Below the pieces are notes generated by a model, which was given only the letters and a program-made list of their open reading frames with translations, made no database searches and was not told where the DNA came from. Made by a program: the position numbers and the translations under genes. Positions 11,597-55,675 of a stretch of DNA of 64,000 nt are shown here, one piece after another (the stretch's first letter is position 1; each line of letters opens with the position of its first letter). Origin of the DNA: an uncultured Bacteroidota bacterium (GTDB taxonomy: Bacteria; Bacteroidota; Rhodothermia; Rhodothermales; DATKEJ01); NCBI GenBank assembly GCA_963768715.1, contig CAVYJC010000008.1:19831-83830 (forward strand), written 5' to 3'.

Positions 11597-12409
11597 TTGA
11601 CGATGCCACTCCCGTTCCATACTGATCGCCGCGCGATGTTCGAACAGCAGTTCCTGAACGCGCGTGAACACGTCGTTCCGTTTGCTGCCAAGCACCTTTC
11701 GTTGAGTGGCGCGAGGGTTCTGGACGTCGGTTCGGGAGAAGGGGGCGTCATGAAAGCGTTCGTAGAGGCCGGGGCGACGGGAATCGGCGTCGAGTTAAGT
11801 GAAGCGCGCGCCGCTTTTGCTCGGGAGACCCTCGAGCAGGAATGTGATGCGGGCGTGCTGGAGTTTGTCGCGGGCGACATCCACGATCCAAACGTGAGCA
11901 GGGGATGGGAGCATCAGTTTGACCTCGTGACGCTGAAAGACTCCATCGAGCACATCACGGAGAAAGAAGCGCTTCTTCGCAGGATTGCGACATTCCTGCA
12001 GCCCGACGGCGCCGTTTTTGTTGGATTCCCACCGTGGCGGATGCCCTTTGGCGGACACCAGCAGATCGCTGCAAGCAAGTTTGCGCGCGTACCCTACTAT
12101 CATCTTTTGCCGCAACGACTGTACACAGGGATTCTGCGGCTTCTCGGAGAGAGCCGGCGGACGATCGACGACCTCCAGGAAATCAGGGATACGCGGATCT
12201 CGATTTCGGGATTTGAGCGACTCGTCAAGGAAACCGGATTCGAGATTCTGGAACGCCGCCTATTTCTCATCAATCCGATTTACCGATACAAATTTGGCCT
12301 GCGACCGCGCATGCAGTTCGGTTTCATTAGTTCGATTCCGTGGTTTCGCGACTTTGTGACCACGACTTGCTATTATCTGATTCGACCGTCTCAACCTTCA
12401 CCCAGATGA
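11597..12409 (+). CDS. class I SAM-dependent methyltransferase
   Basis: Motif I VLDVGSGEGG and a post-I acidic residue. Stop overlaps the next start (ATGA at 12406-12409). Confidence 0.75.
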   Translation: MTMPLPFHTDRRAMFEQQFLNAREHVVPFAAKHLSLSGARVLDVGSGEGGVMKAFVEAGATGIGVELSEARAAFARETLEQECDAGVLEFVAGDIHDPNVSRGWEHQFDLVTLKDSIEHITEKEALLRRIATFLQPDGAVFVGFPPWRMPFGGHQQIAASKFARVPYYHLLPQRLYTGILRLLGESRRTIDDLQEIRDTRISISGFERLVKETGFEILERRLFLINPIYRYKFGLRPRMQFGFISSIPWFRDFVTTTCYYLIRPSQPSPR

Positions 12410-13413
12410 GCGAATCACCAAAGTCTGACTCGAAGTCGATCATATCCCACCTGTTCACTGTAGCCCGGCAGCTTTCGAGTTCCGGTGGACCGAGTTCGGG
12501 TCGAGACGGCTCGTCGAAGGGGATCGCTATTTTCTTGTCCATCGTGGCTTCCATCCTGATCTGGTTCATGATCAGCATGCGCGAGTCCTATTCGGTCGTC
12601 AGAAATTTTCCAACAACCGTCGTCAACCTTCCGGAGGATCGCGCTTTGCGTTCGCCTCCTCCGGCTGAGGTTCGTGTCCAATTGGAGGGACGAGGATGGC
12701 AGTTGCTCAAATTGATTACATCTCCGCAGAAAATTCGCCTCGACGCCTCGACGCCCACGGTAGACCTGTATCGGGCTACGGCAGAGAGTCTCCCCTCCGA
12801 CGTCCGGCCGCAGAGCGTCAACCCGCCTGAAATCCGTCTTCGAATGGAACAGCGAGCGTTTCGTCGTCTACCGGTGGAGGTCGTCGCAGACATCAAGACG
12901 GTGGAGCCATACGATCTCGTGCATCCCGTGCGGGCTTTGCCCGAGTCGGTAGCTGTTGCGGGTGCGGCCTCGATCGTTGCCAGCCTGAATTCATGGAAAA
13001 CCAAGCCGTTCGAGCGGGACAAGGTCAATGAATCTTTTACCCAGTACGTTCCACTCTCCGATACACTCAAAGGTCTGATCGATCTCGACTTCTCCAACGT
13101 CTTGCTCGAGGCCGAAGTGGTCGAGTTCACGGAAAACCAGCGTCTTCTCGACGTGAAGGTGATCGATGCGCCTGCCGCGGCAAATCGCTACGAGTTGATG
13201 CCGGATCGGGTGTCAGTACGCTACACCGTACCGATTACGCAATTCGAGGCTTCGGCTATCAGTGATTCGTTCTACGCCACGGTTCCATATCCCGTGATCG
13301 TTGCGGATACGACGGGTCGCGTCGAGCCTGACATTCACATCCCGGCCGACATGGTGGTCAAGGATTTGATCGTCGAAACGCCCCACCTGCAGTATTACGT
13401 GATACTGGAATAG
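12406..13413 (+). CDS. YbbR-like domain-containing protein
   Basis: Start taken at ATG 12406 (ORF track 12340). N-terminal TM helix followed by repeated YbbR-type beta domains (VVNLPED..EVRVQLEGRGWQL). Stop TAG at 13411-13413. Confidence 0.65.
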   Translation: MSESPKSDSKSIISHLFTVARQLSSSGGPSSGRDGSSKGIAIFLSIVASILIWFMISMRESYSVVRNFPTTVVNLPEDRALRSPPPAEVRVQLEGRGWQLLKLITSPQKIRLDASTPTVDLYRATAESLPSDVRPQSVNPPEIRLRMEQRAFRRLPVEVVADIKTVEPYDLVHPVRALPESVAVAGAASIVASLNSWKTKPFERDKVNESFTQYVPLSDTLKGLIDLDFSNVLLEAEVVEFTENQRLLDVKVIDAPAAANRYELMPDRVSVRYTVPITQFEASAISDSFYATVPYPVIVADTTGRVEPDIHIPADMVVKDLIVETPHLQYYVILE

Positions 13414-13481
13414 GTCCGTGGTCCGTGGTCCGTGGTCCGTGGTCCGAGGTCCGAGGTCCGAAGTCCGAGTCCGAAGTCCGA
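13413..13481 (+). repeat. heptanucleotide tandem array (GGTCCGT)4(GGTCCGA)3 plus 3 degenerate units
   Basis: Counted directly. The first G is the last base of the TAG stop at 13411-13413. About 10 units with a 7-nt period. Confidence 0.95.
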
Positions 13482-13545
13482 GAGCCTGCCCCGAGCGAGC
13501 GAGACGCTGCACAATCGTCGTCGTGATGTGTGCCGAGCGACGAGG

Positions 13546-13751: not shown

Positions 13752-13806
13752 GCCCCGTTTACGGGGCGTCGCTTCAAGACCGGGCATCGATGCCCGGGAA
13801 TGACGG
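13752..13806 (+). repeat. conserved intergenic hairpin module (copy 1)
   Basis: Two perfect hairpins: gccccg-ttta-cggggc (13752-13767) and ccgggca-tcga-tgcccgg (13780-13797). By hand alignment the first 30 nt match the reverse complement of 33194-33238 at 27/30 positions. The 3' end CGGGAATGACGGA recurs on the minus strand at 53037-53049. Confidence 0.8.
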
Positions 13807-21975: not shown

Positions 21976-22024
21976 GGTACGTGGTACGTGGTACGTGGTA
22001 CGTGGTACTTGGTACTTGGTACTT
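21976..22024. repeat. heptanucleotide tandem array (GGTACGT)4(GGTACTT)3
   Basis: Counted directly. Lies in the 252-nt divergent region between the menF start (21844, minus strand) and ORF 22097 (plus strand). Confidence 0.95.
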
Positions 22025-26760: not shown

Positions 26761-28593
26761 ATGTGCGGCATTGTTGGCTACGTCGGCACCAGACAGGCAG
26801 ATGCAGTACTGCTTGCAGGCCTCAAGCGTCTCGAGTATCGAGGCTACGACTCAGCGGGCATTGCCGTCGTGGATGGCGGCCTCGAGTGCGTCAAGAAGCA
26901 GGGCAAGGTTGCCGATCTCGTCGCGCTTCTCGATGGGGGACTGAAAGGCGTCGTCGGCATCGGGCATACGAGGTGGGCGACGCACGGTGTCCCGAATGAC
27001 GTGAATGCACACCCGCATCTATCCTCCGATGGGCGATTTGCCCTCGTCCACAACGGGATCATCGAGAACTACGTCTCACTCCGTGAACGACTGATCCAGT
27101 CAGGCTACAAATTTCGGAGCCAGACCGATACAGAAGTTCTCGTCCATCTCATCCACGAGGTGGCCACGCAGACGGGACTCACACTTGTTGAGGCGGTGCG
27201 TCAGGCCCTGACGCAGGTGATCGGCACCTACGGCATTGCCGTTGTCTCGGCGGATGAGCCGGATATGGTAATCGCGGCCCGGAGCGGGAGTCCACTGATT
27301 CTTGGTGTCGGAGACGGCGAGTACTTTGTTGCGTCCGATGCCTCCGCAATCGTCGAACACACGAATCAGGTCGTCTACCTCAACGATGGAGAAATGGTCG
27401 TCATCAGGCCGACCGGGTTCGAGGTCACGACCATCGACAATGTCATCCTCGACAAGGAGACGCATCGTCTGGAATGGGATCTTGAGCGAATTGAAAAGGG
27501 CGGCTACGAGCATTTTATGCTCAAGGAGATCATGGAGCAGCCCGATGCTATTCGGGACTGCCTTCGCGGGCGCATCAGATCTGAGGATGCGACGATCAAA
27601 TTGGGCGGGCTTATCGACGTGCTGGATCGGTTCAAAGACGCGCGGCGCATCCTTATCTGTGCATGCGGCACGTCCTGGCATGCCGGTCTGGTCGGCGAGT
27701 ACCTTTTCGAAGAATTTGCTCGCATCCCTACGGAGGTCGAGTACGCGTCGGAGTTCCGGTATCGTAACCCGATCGTCTATTCCGATGACATCGTAATCGT
27801 GATTTCCCAGAGCGGGGAAACCGCCGATACACTCGCTGCGGTTCGTGAGGCCAAATCGAAAGGCGCCTTGGTGCTCGGCGTTTGCAATGTCGTGGGCTCC
27901 ACGATTGCCAGGGAGACCGACGCCGGAGTCTATCTGCACGCAGGCCCGGAGGTCGGCGTCGCCTCGACAAAAGCTTTCACGGCCCAGGTTGCGGTCCTCG
28001 TCATGATGGCGCTGACGGCGGCAAAAGAGCGAGGGACGATGTCTGAGGCGGAGATTGCTGCGATCCTACGCGAGCTGGAGGAGATCCCCGATAAGATTAC
28101 GTTGGTGCTCGAGACTGACGACAAAATTCTGCAGTTGGCCAAAATCAACCGCCTGGCTTCCAACTTTCTTTACATGGGTCGAGGATACAACTTTCCCGTG
28201 GCGCTGGAAGGAGCCCTGAAACTCAAGGAAATCTCCTATGTGCATGCCGAAGGATATCCTGCAGCGGAGATGAAACATGGTCCCATTGCACTCATCGACC
28301 GGTTGATGTCCGTGGTCGTAATCGCGATGAAGGACTCGACATATCCGAAGGTCGTCAGCAATATCGAAGAAGTTCGCGCCCGCGGAGGGCTCGTTTTGGC
28401 GATCACCGATCACGAAAACCACGAACTCGACGATTTGTGCGAGTTCGTGCTTCGCGTCCCGCCAACGGCAGCCTGCCTTGCGCCTCTCCTGACCGTGGTT
28501 CCGCTCCAGCTTCTTGCGTACCATATGGCGGTATTGCGCGGTTGTGACGTCGACCAGCCTCGCAATCTGGCGAAGAGTGTCACTGTCGAATGA
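26761..28593 (+). CDS. glmS: glutamine--fructose-6-phosphate aminotransferase (isomerising)
   Basis: Starts MCGIVGYVG. Two SIS domains. Ends KSVTVE. Confidence 0.97.
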   Translation: MCGIVGYVGTRQADAVLLAGLKRLEYRGYDSAGIAVVDGGLECVKKQGKVADLVALLDGGLKGVVGIGHTRWATHGVPNDVNAHPHLSSDGRFALVHNGIIENYVSLRERLIQSGYKFRSQTDTEVLVHLIHEVATQTGLTLVEAVRQALTQVIGTYGIAVVSADEPDMVIAARSGSPLILGVGDGEYFVASDASAIVEHTNQVVYLNDGEMVVIRPTGFEVTTIDNVILDKETHRLEWDLERIEKGGYEHFMLKEIMEQPDAIRDCLRGRIRSEDATIKLGGLIDVLDRFKDARRILICACGTSWHAGLVGEYLFEEFARIPTEVEYASEFRYRNPIVYSDDIVIVISQSGETADTLAAVREAKSKGALVLGVCNVVGSTIARETDAGVYLHAGPEVGVASTKAFTAQVAVLVMMALTAAKERGTMSEAEIAAILRELEEIPDKITLVLETDDKILQLAKINRLASNFLYMGRGYNFPVALEGALKLKEISYVHAEGYPAAEMKHGPIALIDRLMSVVVIAMKDSTYPKVVSNIEEVRARGGLVLAITDHENHELDDLCEFVLRVPPTAACLAPLLTVVPLQLLAYHMAVLRGCDVDQPRNLAKSVTVE

Positions 28594-28630
28594 CGGTGCG
28601 CCGCCTTTCGTTGAGCAAGTTTGGATCAAG

Positions 28631-29731
28631 ATGTTAAGTGAGTCACACCTGAAGGAGATCCGGCAGCATTTCGCCGAGCTGACCGCGGTGATGGCCCGCC
28701 CGGAGATCGCTACCGACCCCACGCGCATGGCGGAGTTGGGAAGGGAGCACGCGCGTCTCGAGCCGGTCATCGGATCGGTCGAACGATACCTCGGTCTCGT
28801 TTCCGAGCTCGAAGATCTTCGCAGCATGCGCGATACGGAGGATGCTGAATTGGTCGAGCTCGTGGCCGATGACATCGAACGCGTGGAATCCGAGCTCGAA
28901 GATCTCGAAGATCGCCTGGAAATACTGCTGCTGCCTACTGATCCGCTCGACGAAAAGAACGCAATCGTGGAGATTCGGGCGGGAACCGGCGGCGACGAGG
29001 CAAGCCTTTTCGCGGGCGATCTGTATCGTCTGTATTTGCGGTTCGGTGAAGCCAACGGATGGAAACTGGAGGTCCTGTCCAGCTCTCCGGGCACTCAGGG
29101 AGGATTCAAAGAGATCATCTTCGGACTTGCGGGAACGGGAGTATTTGGATCCATGAAATATGAAAGCGGCGTCCACCGCGTGCAGCGCGTTCCAGCGACC
29201 GAATCGAGTGGGCGCATCCATACGTCGGCGGCGACCGTGGCGGTGCTTCCCGAAGCGGCACAGGTCGACGTGAACATCAGTGCCGAAGATCTCGAGATTG
29301 ACGTCTATCGCTCCAGTGGTCCGGGCGGCCAGAGCGTAAACACGACCGACTCCGCCGTTCGCATCACCCATATTCCCTCGGGACTCGTCGTCACGTGCCA
29401 GGACGAGAAGAGCCAGTTGAAGAACAAGGACAAGGCGATGCGCGTGTTGCGTGCGCGGCTCTTCGAAATGGAACAGTCGAAGCTCGACGCAGAGCGAAGC
29501 GAAGCTCGTCGATCGATGGTGGGATCAGGCGATCGTTCGGCCAAGATCCGAACTTACAACTGGCCCCAGGGGCGAGTGACCGATCATCGACTCGAAGGCG
29601 ATGACAAGAACCATGCGCTCCAGAGGATCATCGACGGTGACCTGTCCGATATCCACCGGGCGCTCAAGCTGGCGGAAAACGCAAGAAGGCTGGCCGGAGA
29701 AGAATACCAAACGGCAAACAGCAAACAGTAA
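28631..29731 (+). CDS. prfA: peptide chain release factor 1
   Basis: ATG 28631. PAT tripeptide (VQRVPATESSGRIHTS) identifies RF1. GGQ motif (SGPGGQSVNTTDSAV). Confidence 0.95.
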   Translation: MLSESHLKEIRQHFAELTAVMARPEIATDPTRMAELGREHARLEPVIGSVERYLGLVSELEDLRSMRDTEDAELVELVADDIERVESELEDLEDRLEILLLPTDPLDEKNAIVEIRAGTGGDEASLFAGDLYRLYLRFGEANGWKLEVLSSSPGTQGGFKEIIFGLAGTGVFGSMKYESGVHRVQRVPATESSGRIHTSAATVAVLPEAAQVDVNISAEDLEIDVYRSSGPGGQSVNTTDSAVRITHIPSGLVVTCQDEKSQLKNKDKAMRVLRARLFEMEQSKLDAERSEARRSMVGSGDRSAKIRTYNWPQGRVTDHRLEGDDKNHALQRIIDGDLSDIHRALKLAENARRLAGEEYQTANSKQ

Positions 29732-29859
29732 ACTTGAGCCCGGACAGATATTTTCTGTTTCAGGTTTCAAGTTTGAATCATATCTTACTAAGCTTTAATG
29801 ACCCTGCCCCAAGCGGTCCATATTGGGGCTTCATAAACTGGAATCCACAGGGAGGACCT

Positions 29860-33238: not shown

Positions 33239-33283
33239 AGCTCGGCGATTGCATCGTCAAGGAATCGGATTTTACCCCGAGTT

Positions 33284-33336
33284 CCATCCTCCATCCTCCA
33301 TCCTCCATCCTCCATCCTCCATCCTCCATCCTCCAT
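33284..33336. repeat. heptanucleotide tandem array (CCATCCT)7 plus partial unit
   Basis: Counted directly: seven perfect units plus CCAT. There is no G on the plus strand across 53 nt. Confidence 0.95.
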
Positions 33337-52152: not shown

Positions 52153-52947
52153 ATGGTCGTCGCCCACGTGTCAGATATCCATTTCGGCCGTCTTTCGACA
52201 GAAAATATCGTAGGGGCTCTCCTCGCCGATATCGACGACCACGATCCGTCGCTCGTTGTCATGAGCGGCGATCTCACGCAGCGCGCCCGCGTTTCCCAAT
52301 TCCAGGCTGCCGCCGAAATGATCTCCCAACTGAAGGCGCCCGTCATGGTGGTGCCTGGCAACCATGACATCCCAGCCTGGTATCGGCCCTATACGCGGCT
52401 TTTCAATCCGGTCGGACGATATGTTCGCTACATAACGCCCGAGCTGCAGCCCACATTTCAGAGCGACAAGCTCGCTGTGGCAGGCATCAATACCGCTCAT
52501 GGCCTGACGATCAAAGGTGGGCGGATCCGCGATGAGCAGGCCGCCTTTCTGAGAGGATTCTTCCACCAGGTTGCGCCGCGAGCATTTAAGATCCTCGTTC
52601 TGCATCACCACTTGGTCAAGATGGCCAAATTGGGCGTCCACGACGTCGCACGGTCTGCCCGGAGTGCGCTGGATGTAATCGGCGAGGAAGAGGTGGATCT
52701 GGTTCTGTGCGGCCACCTGCACATTTCAAGCGTTCAGTCGTTCCCGGTTCACGGGGGCAAGCATCATATGGTTGTCGCGAGTGCCGGGACGGCGACCAGC
52801 TCGCGAGGTCGCGGGAAGGACCGCCGTGAGAACTTCTACAACATTGTGCATATAGCAGACGACCACTTCGTCGTCGAGGAACGCGCGATGGCCGACGACG
52901 GGAAAACGTTCACCTTCGTGAGGGAACATCCGTTTTCTAGGGACTAG
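52153..52947 (+). CDS. metallophosphoesterase
   Basis: ATG 52153. VSDIHFG, SGDLTQRA, GNHD, HHH and GHLH motifs. Stop TAG at 52945-52947. Confidence 0.8.
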   Translation: MVVAHVSDIHFGRLSTENIVGALLADIDDHDPSLVVMSGDLTQRARVSQFQAAAEMISQLKAPVMVVPGNHDIPAWYRPYTRLFNPVGRYVRYITPELQPTFQSDKLAVAGINTAHGLTIKGGRIRDEQAAFLRGFFHQVAPRAFKILVLHHHLVKMAKLGVHDVARSARSALDVIGEEEVDLVLCGHLHISSVQSFPVHGGKHHMVVASAGTATSSRGRGKDRRENFYNIVHIADDHFVVEERAMADDGKTFTFVREHPFSRD

Positions 52948-52951
52948 TTTC

Positions 52952-53043
52952 GTCCGAAGGTCGAAGGTCGAAGATCGAAGGTCGAAGGTCGAAGGTCGAT
53001 GATCGAAGGTCGAAGGTCGAAGGTCGAAGGTCCGAAGTCCGTC
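52952..53043 (+). repeat. heptanucleotide tandem array: GTCCGAA, then 10 GGTCGAA-type units (incl. GATCGAA x2, GGTCGAT x1), then GGTCCGAA GTCCGTC
   Basis: Counted directly. Begins 4 nt after the TAG of the metallophosphoesterase gene. Confidence 0.95.
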
Positions 53044-53063
53044 ATTCCCGCGAAGGCGGGAAT
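53044..53063. repeat. REP-like perfect hairpin attcccgc-gaag-gcgggaat
   Basis: 8-bp stem with a 4-nt loop, read directly. The flanking GTCATTCCCG is the reverse complement of CGGGAATGAC at 13795-13804. Confidence 0.8.
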
Positions 53064-53160
53064 CCAGGATAAGTCTTCGAATCTTCAGGTCGGGAACGAA
53101 GAAGGCTGGTCGTTCAGCTCAGAATGAATCTCGGATGGGTCGACTCACCGCCTGCGCCAC

Positions 53161-53231
53161 GGACCGGACTCGGACGGACGGACCCCGGACTCCGGACGAC
53201 GGACCCCGGACCCCGGACCCCGGACCCCGGA
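53161..53231 (-). repeat. heptanucleotide tandem array; the minus strand reads T(CCGGGGT)4 followed by about 6 degenerate GTCCGNN units
   Basis: Four perfect ACCCCGG units on the plus strand at 53203-53230. The array abuts the TAG stop (53234-53232) of the minus-strand cation-transporter-like gene. Confidence 0.95.
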
Positions 53232-53952
53232 CTATTCATGACACTCACACGTCTCGCCCTTTAACGCTTCGATCCCTTCGTTCGTGATGATCGGAACCAT
53301 GATGAGCGCCGCTGCGGGATCAGCCCACCACCATCCAAAGAGCGCATTCAAGCCCAGTCCGATGAGTAGAATCGCCGAGAGGTACATGCAGAGGTCCGTC
53401 TGACGGGAATCGGCCTCGAGCGCGCGGCTGTTGATGGATCGGGCCACCTTGCGCTTTGCGTTCGCCAGGACTGGCATCACGACAAGCGAGACGGCAGCTA
53501 CGATGATTCCGACCAGACTTTCATCCGGCGCCTCCTGGAGCCAGAGGGCTTTCCCAGCGTCCAGGGCCACATAGGCAGCTAAGAGAAGGAAGGATACGCC
53601 TACAAGCTGAAGGGCGCGTTTTTCGCGTTTCTCGGCTTCCTCTCCGTCCTGCAGGCGCCAGAGCAGCACCCCGCCCGAAGAGCTTTCGATGGCCGAGTCG
53701 ATTCCGAACCCGATGAGTGCTGTGCTACCGGCGACGACGCCGCTCCCAACCGCGACCACCGCCTCCAGCAGGTTCCAGCCGATAGTGAAGTACTCGAGGC
53801 GACGACCCCGCCGGACCAGGTTCGTGTTCTTGGTCCTTCTCCCTGGTTCCTCGTCGGTGGGGGAACGGAGCCGTCATTTCCGTGGGGCTGGAATCCGGAT
53901 CGTTGAGCGCAGGTGTGGGCTCCGGGATTTGGTTCTCCGTCGACGGACTCAT
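53232..53952 (-). pseudogene. small cation-transporter-like membrane protein (CDF-like TM region), frame change at a G5/C5 run (53859-53863)
   Basis: ORF 53232..53759 continues upstream without a start codon (..RRGRRLEYFTIGWNLLEAVVAVG). ATG 53952 (MSPSTENQ..) is in another frame. The two frames meet at gttcccccacc. Confidence 0.5.
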
Positions 53953-54051
53953 CTCCTTGATGTCCCCTTGGTTGTGGCAGTCGTCAATGAACGCTAAACG
54001 CAAAACGCTAAACTACTTCGTCAGGTCATGCCTGGCACGCATTCTCGTGCG

Positions 54052-54082
54052 CTCGGACCCCGGACCCCGGACCTATCCAGAC
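54052..54082 (-). repeat. short heptamer array; the minus strand reads GTCTGGA TAG GTCCGGG GTCCGGG GTCCGAG
   Basis: Read directly. It starts at the base following the pckA TAG stop (54085-54083). Confidence 0.85.
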
Positions 54083-55675
54083 CTATTCCCTCGGCCCGGC
54101 GCGTCTGACCGCCTCGTCCACGCGGCCTGCATACCGCTCGAAGTTCGCCTTGAACATGCCGGCCAGTTTTCGGGCCTGTCGGTCGTAGGCATCCGCGTCG
54201 CCCCATGTGTTCCGGGCTGAGAGAACGCGAGACGGCACGCCGCTGACCTTCTTGGGTACTCGAAGGCCGAAGAAGGATTCGGCCGTGACAGGCACGTCGT
54301 CGAGCCTGCCGTCGAGGATGGCATCGAGCATGGCCCTCGTATGGTCGAGTTTCATGCGTGAACCGACGCCGTACGGTCCGCCTGTCCAGCCTGTATTCAC
54401 CAGCCAGCACGTCGATCCATGCTTACGGATGCGCGCCGCGAGCATTTCGGCGTACTCGACCGGGTCGAGCACCATAAAAGGCTCTCCGAAGCACGCGCTG
54501 AATGTGGCCTGAGGTTCCGTGACGCCCTTTTCGGTGCCTGCGACCTTCGCCGTGTATCCAGAAAGAAAATGATACATCGTCTGCTCGACGGTGAGCCGGG
54601 AGACGGGCGGCAAGACGCCAAATGCGTCGGCGGTGAGCATGATCACGTTCTTGGGGTGACCGCAGTGGCCGCGACCGGACGCATTCGGGATGAAATGAAT
54701 TGGATACGCGGCCCGGGTGTTTTCAGTGATGGAGTCGTCGTTGAAATCGATCTCCCGCGTCTGCTCGTCCAGCACCACATTTTCGGCAACGGTGCCGAAT
54801 CGTCGCGTCGTTGCGTAGATCTCGGGCTCGCCATCCTGTGAGAGCCTTATGAGTTTTGCGTAGCAGCCACCCTCGAAGTTGAAGATCCCCTCATTGCTCC
54901 AGCCGTGTTCGTCGTCGCCAATGAGCGTCCTCGACGGATCGGCCGATAGCGTCGTCTTGCCGGTTCCGGACAGGCCGAAGAAGATCGCTGCGCCGCCGTC
55001 GCCGTCGTTCGCCGAACAGTGCATCGGAAGAACGCCGTGTCCGGGGAGGAGGTAGTTCAGCGCCGAGAAAACGGATTTCTTAATCTCCCCGGCGTAGCCC
55101 GTTCCTCCGATGATGACGAGTCTCCGCTCAAGGTTGAGAATAATGAAGGCTTCCGACTGCGTGCCGTCGGTTTTCGGATCCGCCTTGAACCCACTGAAGT
55201 TCAGCACGGTCAGTCGCGGCTCAAATTCACGCAGATCCGCAGGCTCCGGTCGCAGGAACATGTTGTGGACGAAGAGATTGTGCCACGCCTGTTCGTTTAC
55301 GACTCGAACAGGCAATCTGTATCGCGGATCGGCGCAGGCGAAGACGTCCCGGACGAAAAACTCGCGGTCCTTGGCATATCTCGCCATCTTTGAGAGGAGG
55401 TGGTCGAACGCATCTTCGGTGATCTCCACGTTCACCGCCCCCCAAGCGACGCGGTCAGACGATTCGCCCGCATCTACGACGAAACGATCATTCGGCGACC
55501 GGCCGGTGTAGGGCTGCGTGACGGACACGAGCGGTCCCGCAGCGGCCAGACGTGATTCTCCCCGCTTGATCGCCAGTTCATACAATGCAGGCGGAGACTC
55601 GCAGTAGTGGAGCTTGCTTGCCGGGAGGAATCCGAGCGACTCGAGATGGGTAATAACGTGATTCGGGATGTTCAT
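54083..55675 (-). CDS. pckA: phosphoenolpyruvate carboxykinase (ATP)
   Basis: ATG 55675 (MNIPNHVITHLESLG). Kinase-1a GLSGTGKTTLS. IGDDEHGW and NTGWTGGPYG motifs. Confidence 0.95.
   Translation of the reverse strand: MNIPNHVITHLESLGFLPASKLHYCESPPALYELAIKRGESRLAAAGPLVSVTQPYTGRSPNDRFVVDAGESSDRVAWGAVNVEITEDAFDHLLSKMARYAKDREFFVRDVFACADPRYRLPVRVVNEQAWHNLFVHNMFLRPEPADLREFEPRLTVLNFSGFKADPKTDGTQSEAFIILNLERRLVIIGGTGYAGEIKKSVFSALNYLLPGHGVLPMHCSANDGDGGAAIFFGLSGTGKTTLSADPSRTLIGDDEHGWSNEGIFNFEGGCYAKLIRLSQDGEPEIYATTRRFGTVAENVVLDEQTREIDFNDDSITENTRAAYPIHFIPNASGRGHCGHPKNVIMLTADAFGVLPPVSRLTVEQTMYHFLSGYTAKVAGTEKGVTEPQATFSACFGEPFMVLDPVEYAEMLAARIRKHGSTCWLVNTGWTGGPYGVGSRMKLDHTRAMLDAILDGRLDDVPVTAESFFGLRVPKKVSGVPSRVLSARNTWGDADAYDRQARKLAGMFKANFERYAGRVDEAVRRAGPRE

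Follow-up and report, generated by a model that had tools for sequence, protein, structure and literature searches.

In the 64,000-nucleotide stretch of Rhodothermales DNA analysed here (hereafter the window), a metallophosphoesterase gene on the plus strand and a Cation_efflux (CDF) gene on the minus strand converge on a gap of 284 nt (window positions 52948-53231). We found this spacer to be a composite of two ordinary, and poorly understood, kinds of bacterial intergenic repeat: two heptamer arrays, one behind each gene, and between them a hairpin of the NTS/SRM type. The locus is a clear example of repeat types already described and not a new kind of element, because the rules that it follows have been published for the heptamer repeats of Xanthomonas and Nostoc (PMC4692102). 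The arrays are probably tolerated, slippage-prone repeats at 3' gene boundaries, lying beside an NTS hairpin that was inserted or lost independently of them. An earlier description made from the letters alone (the sequence-only reading) had laid out the stop codons, the 284-nt gap, the two arrays and a hairpin, and direct reading of the sequence places all of them where it had put them.

Tandem Repeats Finder recovered both arrays at period 7, with a score of 136 and 11.7 copies for array 1 and a score of 87/92 and 7.7 copies for array 2 (coordinates in Table 1). As had been proposed, each array follows the stop codon of the gene that reads into it and shares the orientation of this gene, and two further GTCCG arrays of the window behave alike. 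The ten GGTCGAA-type units of array 1 include GATCGAA twice and GGTCGAT once; in array 2 the first GTCCG takes its G from the TAG stop codon of the CDF gene. On the sense strand of the adjoining gene, both arrays carry more G than C. The limits first given for array 1 (52952-53043), within which it closes with GGTCCGAA GTCCGTC, have to be narrowed: the array is present, but its last 4 nt (CGTC, 53040-53043) are part of the 28-nt NTS motif. With these wider limits array 1 measures 92 nt, and array 2 measures 71 nt. It had also been stated that the arrays use different units and are not complementary. The units do differ; however, a GTCCG core is common to both arrays when each is read along the sense strand of the gene that it adjoins (in array 1 at the edges only), and over 19-29 nt the complementarity between them is 72-79%. 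Read in this way, both arrays appear to belong to one GTCCGNN family, and they are intergenic heptanucleotide repeats of the type known from cyanobacteria (STRR), Xanthomonas/Nostoc, Geobacter and Beggiatoaceae.

The orthologous regions were compared among relatives, as had been suggested, and the arrays were found to vary in presence, unit type and copy number. A 9.9-kb contig (L001) of the metagenome-assembled genome (MAG) GCA_049579085.1, which encodes an E1-beta protein identical to that of the window, shares 98.6-99.0% nucleotide identity with the window on either side of the spacer. Its spacer is 127 nt long, its metallophosphoesterase stop codon is TAA, its array 2 is shorter with the units in a different order, and both the hairpin and most of the stretch that had been called unique are missing. 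In three relatives of the same 90% protein cluster (L248-L250) the stop is TGA, some five degenerate TCGATGA units come next, and array 2 consists of GTCCGTG-type units; all three contigs stop inside it. Where the window has GGTCGAA, which in the sequence-only reading may have arisen from a GGTCCGA-like unit, the sister alleles have TCGATGA or, in L001, GATCGAT/GATCGGAT units. In L122 (78% amino-acid identity) TAG is followed by TCATTAG three times and then by TAAGAAC units; an 85% relative (L123) has no array and carries the same hairpin in the opposite orientation; in L124 (61% amino-acid identity) a 66-nt gap contains an 8/16-mer array (ACGTCCCG...), and GTCCCAC/GTCCCGG heptamers follow the E1-beta stop codon. 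Finally, in L245 and L246 (61-63% amino-acid identity) the metallophosphoesterase and PEPCK genes converge directly on repeat-free gaps of 17 and 9 nt, respectively (L245 3609-3627; L246 2482-2492).

These two repeat-free junctions rule out that the arrays are conserved at the site in all relatives, and the arrays are not required there. Because units, copy numbers and stop codons differ between alleles whose flanks are 98.6-99% identical, the arrays evolve much faster than the adjacent genes. Alleles that share at least 90% protein identity end the metallophosphoesterase gene with TAG, TAA or TGA, so that TAG, to which the sequence-only reading had anchored array 1, is not a required anchor of this array; the general enrichment of TAG next to arrays is modest as well (see below). 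A single mobile insertion with target-site duplications, which would have refuted the earlier description, was also rejected: sister alleles keep both arrays without the hairpin, and the variable block has no duplication at its flanks. Two further observations concern these junctions. Their gene content varies, with an AMP-binding gene between the metallophosphoesterase and PEPCK genes in L124 (5795-7648) and the CDF gene in the clade of the window. Moreover, the short-read contigs of five relatives (L122, L123, L248, L249 and L250) end in a heptamer array or in the NTS just past the metallophosphoesterase gene; such repeats evidently interrupt assemblies, and MAGs may contain fewer of them than the genomes do.

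The hairpin had been labelled REP-like. This label was not retained, since the motif is specifically the published NTS/SRM motif, which it matches at each of 28 positions. Its dRS3 core (53044-53063) reads ATTCCCGC-GAAG-GCGGGAAT, which gives a stem of 8 bp without mismatch and a loop of 4 nt. The NTS motif includes the dRS3 palindrome of Neisseria and is bound and cut, as single-stranded DNA, by the GIY-YIG nuclease SsnA, and Ssn-related motifs and ssn genes are reportedly widespread (PMC11893778). The likeness to this NTS/dRS3/SRM class extends over the whole 28-nt consensus, the non-palindromic flanks CGTC and CYRG included; in contrast, the host is neither Neisseria nor another described SRM-rich symbiont, and the motif would here be a putative Ssn target. 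REP/BIME elements are palindromic repeats of intergenic DNA, clustered in 3' spacers. The hairpin is palindromic and intergenic like them, but is accompanied here by neither a RAYT (REP-associated tyrosine transposase) nor a REP consensus. A literature search with the exact hairpin sequence matched a Neisseria primer alone.

One perfect NTS copy is present in the window. Metagenome contigs hold at least 140 exact copies of the 24-nt NTS core, in at least 120 contigs that span many projects, activated-sludge and TARA records among them; these copies are often paired in inverted orientation, 10-60 nt apart, and at one locus (L204) a GIY-YIG open reading frame (ORF) begins 13 nt from an NTS copy. 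A motif scan of the window, which is a weak test, found no GIY-YIG-like ORF or ssn gene. Among the relatives, the L123 contig ends inside the NTS motif, as expected for a repeat. Two variant NTS/SRM-like hairpins were also seen in the window. The first, CGTCATTCCCGGGCATCGATGCCCGG (13775-13805, minus strand), lies in a long spacer that also holds the array at 13414; the second, CGTCATTTCCGTGGGG-CTGGAATCCGG (53872-53898, plus strand), lies in the CDF gene, within the part annotated as N-terminal, and is intact in L001, with a compensatory stem change (ATTTCCGT/ACGGGAAT). In metagenome contig L199 an NTS copy is flanked by heptamer-like arrays in inverted orientation, and in L159 and L217 the 5' half of the NTS is repeated in tandem, as partial copies, ahead of NTS copies; these three contigs hint that heptamer arrays and NTS co-occur in spacers beyond this window.

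Between the hairpin and array 2, about 97 nt had been described as unique sequence. There is indeed no internal repeat in this stretch, but 14 nt of it are shared with the sister alleles, and the motif CTGG-N12-GAATGA at 53106-53127 is possibly a decayed inverted NTS partner. The arrangement NTS-spacer-inverted NTS is common among the metagenome copies.

Table 1. Features of the spacer, its flanking genes and two further GTCCG arrays (window positions).
Feature	Position	Strand	Description
Array 1	52952..53039	+	GTCCGAA, ten GGTCGAA-type heptamers, GGTCCGAA, GTC; begins 4 nt past the metallophosphoesterase stop
NTS/SRM hairpin	53040..53067	+	CGTCATTCCCGCGAAGGCGGGAATCCAG; 28/28 match to consensus CGTCATTCCCGCGMAVGCGGGAATCYRG (PMC11893778), oriented flanks included
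Stretch without counterpart in sister alleles	53068..53145		gap in the alignment to L001
Short spacer	53146..53159		CACCGCCTGCGCCA; in sister alleles CACCCTGCCAGACC (L001) and CGCCCTGCCAGACC (L248-L250)
Array 2	about 53157/53161..53231	-	TAG, then (TCCGGGG)x4, TCCGTCG, TCCGGAG, TCCGGGG, TCCGTCC, GTCCGAG, TCCGGTCCGTGG / TCCGGTCC
Metallophosphoesterase gene	52153..52947	+	Pfam Metallophos, E=2.8e-19; TAG stop at 52945-52947
Cation_efflux (CDF) gene, 3' part	53232..53759	-	Pfam Cation_efflux, E=3.3e-11; TAG stop at 53234-53232
Third GTCCG array	54052..54082	-	TAG GTCTGGA TAG GTCCGGG GTCCGGG GTCCGAG; abuts the PEPCK stop codon
Fourth GTCCG array	13414..13482	+	GTCCGTG x4, GTCCGAG x2, then GTCCGAA/GTCCGAG; abuts the TAG (13411-13413) of ORF 12340-13413

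We asked whether the orientation seen at both ends of the spacer is a common character of such arrays. Four tandem GTCCGNN units (GTCCGNN x4) matched at least 117 stretches in more than 10 phyla, among them Acidobacteriota, Verrucomicrobiota, Planctomycetota, Chloroflexota, Myxococcota and Actinomycetota; further matches came from Bacteroidota, Cyanobacteriota, Pseudomonadota, Gemmatimonadota, Rhodothermales relatives and others, and an Anabaena locus (L012) was retrieved directly by the pattern. The counts that follow are samples and not censuses, drawn from the matches listed for GTCCGNN x4 and from 1.6 Mb of DNA of more than 10 phyla. Gene orientation was called with a purpose-built coding-strand classifier on 300-nt flanks, which reached 96-100% in cross-validation and was correct on 7/7 test genes of the window, six of them with Pfam matches. 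When a gene ended within ~40 nt on their 5' side, GTCCG arrays were co-oriented with it in 30 cases and anti-oriented in 10 (p=0.002). We then considered period-7 arrays of any unit, of which 315 were analysed in the 1.6 Mb. Those at most 40 nt after a gene end were richer in G than in C on the sense strand (70:26), and the bias held for the arrays after gene ends that are not of the GTCCG type (40:9, p=9e-6). These gene-end arrays mostly begin -2 to +10 nt from the stop codon, and their median length in the cross-phylum set is 34 nt. Arrays before gene starts showed the reverse bias (G>C on the sense strand 20:56) and, where just one side of an array is coding, its G-rich strand points away from that side (105:55, p=1e-4). 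Intragenic arrays, used as a control, had no strand bias (14:13).

The order of array pairs follows the same polarity. A complementary CGGAC array lies downstream of the GTCCG array in 14 loci and upstream of it in 0; inverted pairs of all unit types run G-rich then C-rich in 18:3, and all adjacent pairs in 41:8. Convergent genes alone do not account for this order, as the pairs are also found at divergent and tandem junctions. TAG is found next to 43/101 arrays versus a background of 28% (p=0.003), an enrichment of about 1.5-fold that is probably due to units beginning with G, which can overlap or abut TAG. These data show that orientation is a statistically supported property of the repeat class across phyla; they recover the published G-rich-strand rule and extend it to more phyla, to more unit types and to both gene ends. 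Polarity at both gene ends narrows the explanations to processes that sense the coding boundary.

Two loci of this sample are worth describing. In an Acidobacteriota MAG (L105, 2314-2512), AAAGTCG/AAGGTCG units are found with an inverted TTCGACC partner array ~120 nt off, and the GGTCGAA unit of array 1 thus recurs in an unrelated phylum. In L021 (6847-6911), only ~15 nt separate a near-perfect (GTCCGTC)4-loop-(CGGACNN)4 hairpin from the ATG with which a P-loop (GxxGxGKT) gene begins downstream, which means that array pairs occupy 5' leaders too, besides 3' spacers.

Rehm et al. (2015; PMC4692102) described intergenic heptamers, GGGAATC in Xanthomonas and GGGGAYT in Nostoc PCC 7120, which lie upstream of genes on the non-coding strand and downstream of genes on the coding strand, at 0-50 nt and with stop-codon overlap included. 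The same repeats form inverted pairs between convergent ORFs, vary in length and sequence between close relatives, and had no function found; the study also cites the over-representation of heptamer simple sequence repeats (SSRs) in bacteria and the idea of slippage related to the polymerase footprint (PMC4692102). The arrays of the window share with them the 7-nt intergenic tandem units, the polarity, the inverted convergent pairs and the variation between relatives. They differ in their units (GTCCGNN and GGTCGAA), in their Rhodothermales MAG host and in showing no four-unit preference, and G-quadruplex potential is present here in one allele of one array only. Similarly, four tandem GGACCGG/GGGACCG heptanucleotides are present in 49 copies in Geobacter metallireducens (PMC2700814), and TAACTGA repeats occur in Beggiatoaceae, cyanobacteria and Bacteroidetes (PMC4679880). 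Like the present arrays, both are multi-copy, mostly intergenic and set in orientation to genes, with indels in 7-nt steps between strains. The GGACC core of the Geobacter unit is similar to that of the window; in contrast, the Geobacter elements have a fixed four copies and are found within genes as well, whereas the TAACTGA repeats mainly precede start codons at a short distance and contain stop codons in every frame.

Heptamer SSRs are reportedly over-represented in bacterial intergenic DNA (Mrazek 2007, as cited in PMC4692102), and the STRR heptanucleotides of heterocystous cyanobacteria were reportedly described by Mazel (1990, as cited in PMC4692102). The window resembles STRR in having several heptamer units per genome, in tandem and often as adjacent arrays in non-coding DNA, but STRR is defined for cyanobacteria, and both phylum and units differ here. 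Contingency loci are hypermutable tandem repeats. Unlike phase-variable contingency SSRs, the arrays of the window lie outside coding sequence and outside recognisable promoters; changes in their length cannot switch a reading frame because they lie outside coding sequence. A phase-variable contingency locus was therefore discarded: both arrays are downstream of stop codons and no promoter-like site is present in the region.

Searches for a functional element in the spacer gave negative results. No Rfam family was found in the whole window at the gathering score, and at E<=1 the only hit in it was a chance-level FtrB match (21 bits, versus a gathering score of 66); the window has no tRNA genes. 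A terminator/promoter scan of 52500-54300 gave no site within the spacer (52948-53231). Folding of the 301-nt spacer was compared with shuffled sequences and yielded z=+0.91 for the plus strand and z=-1.59 for the minus strand, neither being significant; in the plus-strand fold the NTS hairpin is the sole helix that survives in the centroid structure. An intrinsic (Rho-independent) bidirectional terminator, for which a GC-rich stem-loop with a U-tract after it and an A-tract ahead of it would be expected, was rejected, as there is no terminator-like site and the NTS hairpin is preceded by GUCCGUC and followed by CCAGGAUAAG.

We favour, as the probable explanation, tolerated slippage-prone repeats at 3' gene boundaries. 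One array would be of the GTCCGNN family and the other a GGTCGAA derivative of that family. Both would originate and be renewed through slipped-strand mispairing, 7 nt at a time, together with local replacement or recombination, and would persist because the untranslated 3' spacer tolerates them. Their orientation bias would reflect a constraint at gene boundaries that is tied to transcription or translation, and not a sequence-specific function, and the arrays would act at most as 3' untranslated region (UTR) or spacer sequence between converging transcripts. The NTS hairpin would have been gained by insertion, or lost from the sister alleles, independently of the arrays. Several points weigh against this explanation. 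Only some of the differences between alleles are clean multiples of 7; the PEPCK array, for instance, differs by +3 nt plus a substitution. Slippage is deduced and not seen directly, and array 1 of the window looks as if it had been replaced as a block rather than expanded. Some of the copy-number differences could result from collapse in short-read assemblies, given that five relatives' contigs end in the array or NTS. The cross-validation of the classifier is partly circular, and the cross-phylum gene orientation rests on this classifier. Finally, pure neutrality does not predict the polarity (41:8 for pairs; GTCCG pairs in 14 loci versus 0), which allows for a function or a directional mutational mechanism; three minority alternatives were kept for this reason.

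One of these is that the head-to-head arrays form a bidirectional 3'-end element, the RNA folds of which terminate or stabilise both converging transcripts. Elsewhere the same layout consists of long true inverted repeats, (GTCCGNN)n-loop-(NNCGGAC)n, and in the window the partially complementary arrays (72-79% over 19-29 nt) are paired in the minus-strand minimum free energy structure; arrays of this kind begin 0-10 nt past stop codons. We nevertheless consider such an element unlikely: the spacer folds no better than shuffles and contains no terminator-like site and no Rfam family, unit type and complementarity differ between alleles, relatives have spacers of 9-17 nt, and array pairs elsewhere are also located upstream of gene starts and between tandem genes. 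A polarity that follows the coding boundary and not the direction of the gene (105:55; 70:26 after gene ends; 56:20 before gene starts; 41:8 for pairs) would also suit polar insulators. Read toward the gene, the RNA of an array is C-rich and G-poor and resembles a Rho-loading (rut) site, which would stop incoming transcription, antisense at 3' ends and read-through at 5' ends, while the gene's own outgoing G-rich transcript would be halted only by the array of its neighbour. The antisense unit of array 1 is UUCGACC, with 43% C and 14% G, the arrays (92 and 71 nt) fall within the size range of rut sites, and a sequence-independent selection on composition fits the many unit types. However, the antisense of array 2 still has 29% G, the median gene-end-adjacent array is only 34 nt long, the bias is 2-3:1 and not absolute, and the 7-nt period is left unexplained; perfectly complementary pairs would in addition form hairpins, structured RNA being a poor Rho substrate, and the C-rich array located 15 nt upstream of a start codon in L021 would attenuate its own mRNA. 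Insulation of this kind is thus improbable.

The same polarity statistics (70:26, 105:55 and 41:8) apply equally to a directional mutational process acting in place of selection. Expansion might occur with the G-rich non-template strand of outward transcription (R-loop or G-structure), or by addition or fold-back copying at G-rich 3' ends, the latter giving (G-rich)n-loop-(C-rich)n pairs. The inverted GTCCG pairs, found only in the order G-rich then C-rich (14 loci versus 0) whatever the orientation of the flanking genes, and the rapid turnover of the arrays are consistent with this process. Yet intragenic arrays are also transcribed and show no bias (14:13), and no enzyme or template for such a process was found. 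Like the insulators, it is improbable. We also considered that the arrays act through a G-quadruplex in DNA or in the 3' UTR, as proposed for the GGGAATC/GGGGAYT repeats. The sense strand of array 2, GGGG-TCC-GGGG-TCC-GGGG-TCC-GGGG, is a canonical four-tract motif. In contrast, L001 has three separated GGGG tracts only, the GTCCGTG-type units of L249/L250 have GG only, array 1 and the array at 13414 contain no tract of three or more Gs, and the published study found no regulatory role (PMC4692102). A conserved G-quadruplex is ruled out by the sister alleles that do not have the four-tract motif, and any action of the arrays through such a structure is the least credible of the explanations considered here.

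The broader claim, that heptamer arrays are polar, gene-boundary-anchored elements in more than 10 phyla whose polarity reflects an undescribed directional mechanism, is doubtful. If true, the mechanism might be composition-based, Rho-type insulation of genes against incoming transcription, or else a directional process of repeat formation driven by transcription or at 3' ends, and this locus would serve as a model case with both sides present. By itself, the locus is of little weight. It enlarges the class of heptamer repeats by a Rhodothermales case with new units and extends the known range of the NTS/SRM hairpin, and it illustrates how such repeats make 3' spacers change far faster than the adjacent genes, stop codon included.

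The metallophosphoesterase frame is open from 51940; its start was placed at 52153 as called in relatives (gene call in L001), and an identical 264-aa protein is on record (P0001). The CDF gene is 99% identical to a 256-aa gene of L001 with two 1-nt deletions, at about 53842 and about 53888. Relative to L001, its frame is broken upstream, yielding a 175-aa ORF and a 92-aa ORF in a different frame; either the gene has decayed to a pseudogene, or a long-read assembly has introduced homopolymer errors here. As the two 1-nt deletions may be long-read errors, single-base details of the window need care.

The arrays of the spacer are not the only ones in the window. Seven period-7 arrays scoring >=40 are present, versus 0 in 20 dinucleotide-preserving shuffles. 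The units listed by Tandem Repeats Finder are AGGTCCG, GGTACGT, TCCATCC, CGAAGGT, CGGACCC and AACGCTA, and CAAACAG was also found. Besides arrays 1 and 2, six more heptamer arrays with at least five unit types are located at 13414-13482, 21976-22022, 29708-29733, 33283-33336, 53990-54013 and 54052-54082. The arrays at 13414-13482 and 54052-54082 are both co-oriented with their own gene, and the L001 counterpart of the PEPCK array reads TAG, GTCCGGG x3, GTCCGAG. ORF 28514-29731 ends inside the CAAACAG array, and the last unit of this array provides its TAA stop codon. The TCCATCC array (7.7 copies) precedes the next gene by 34 nt and is C-rich when read in the sense of that gene.

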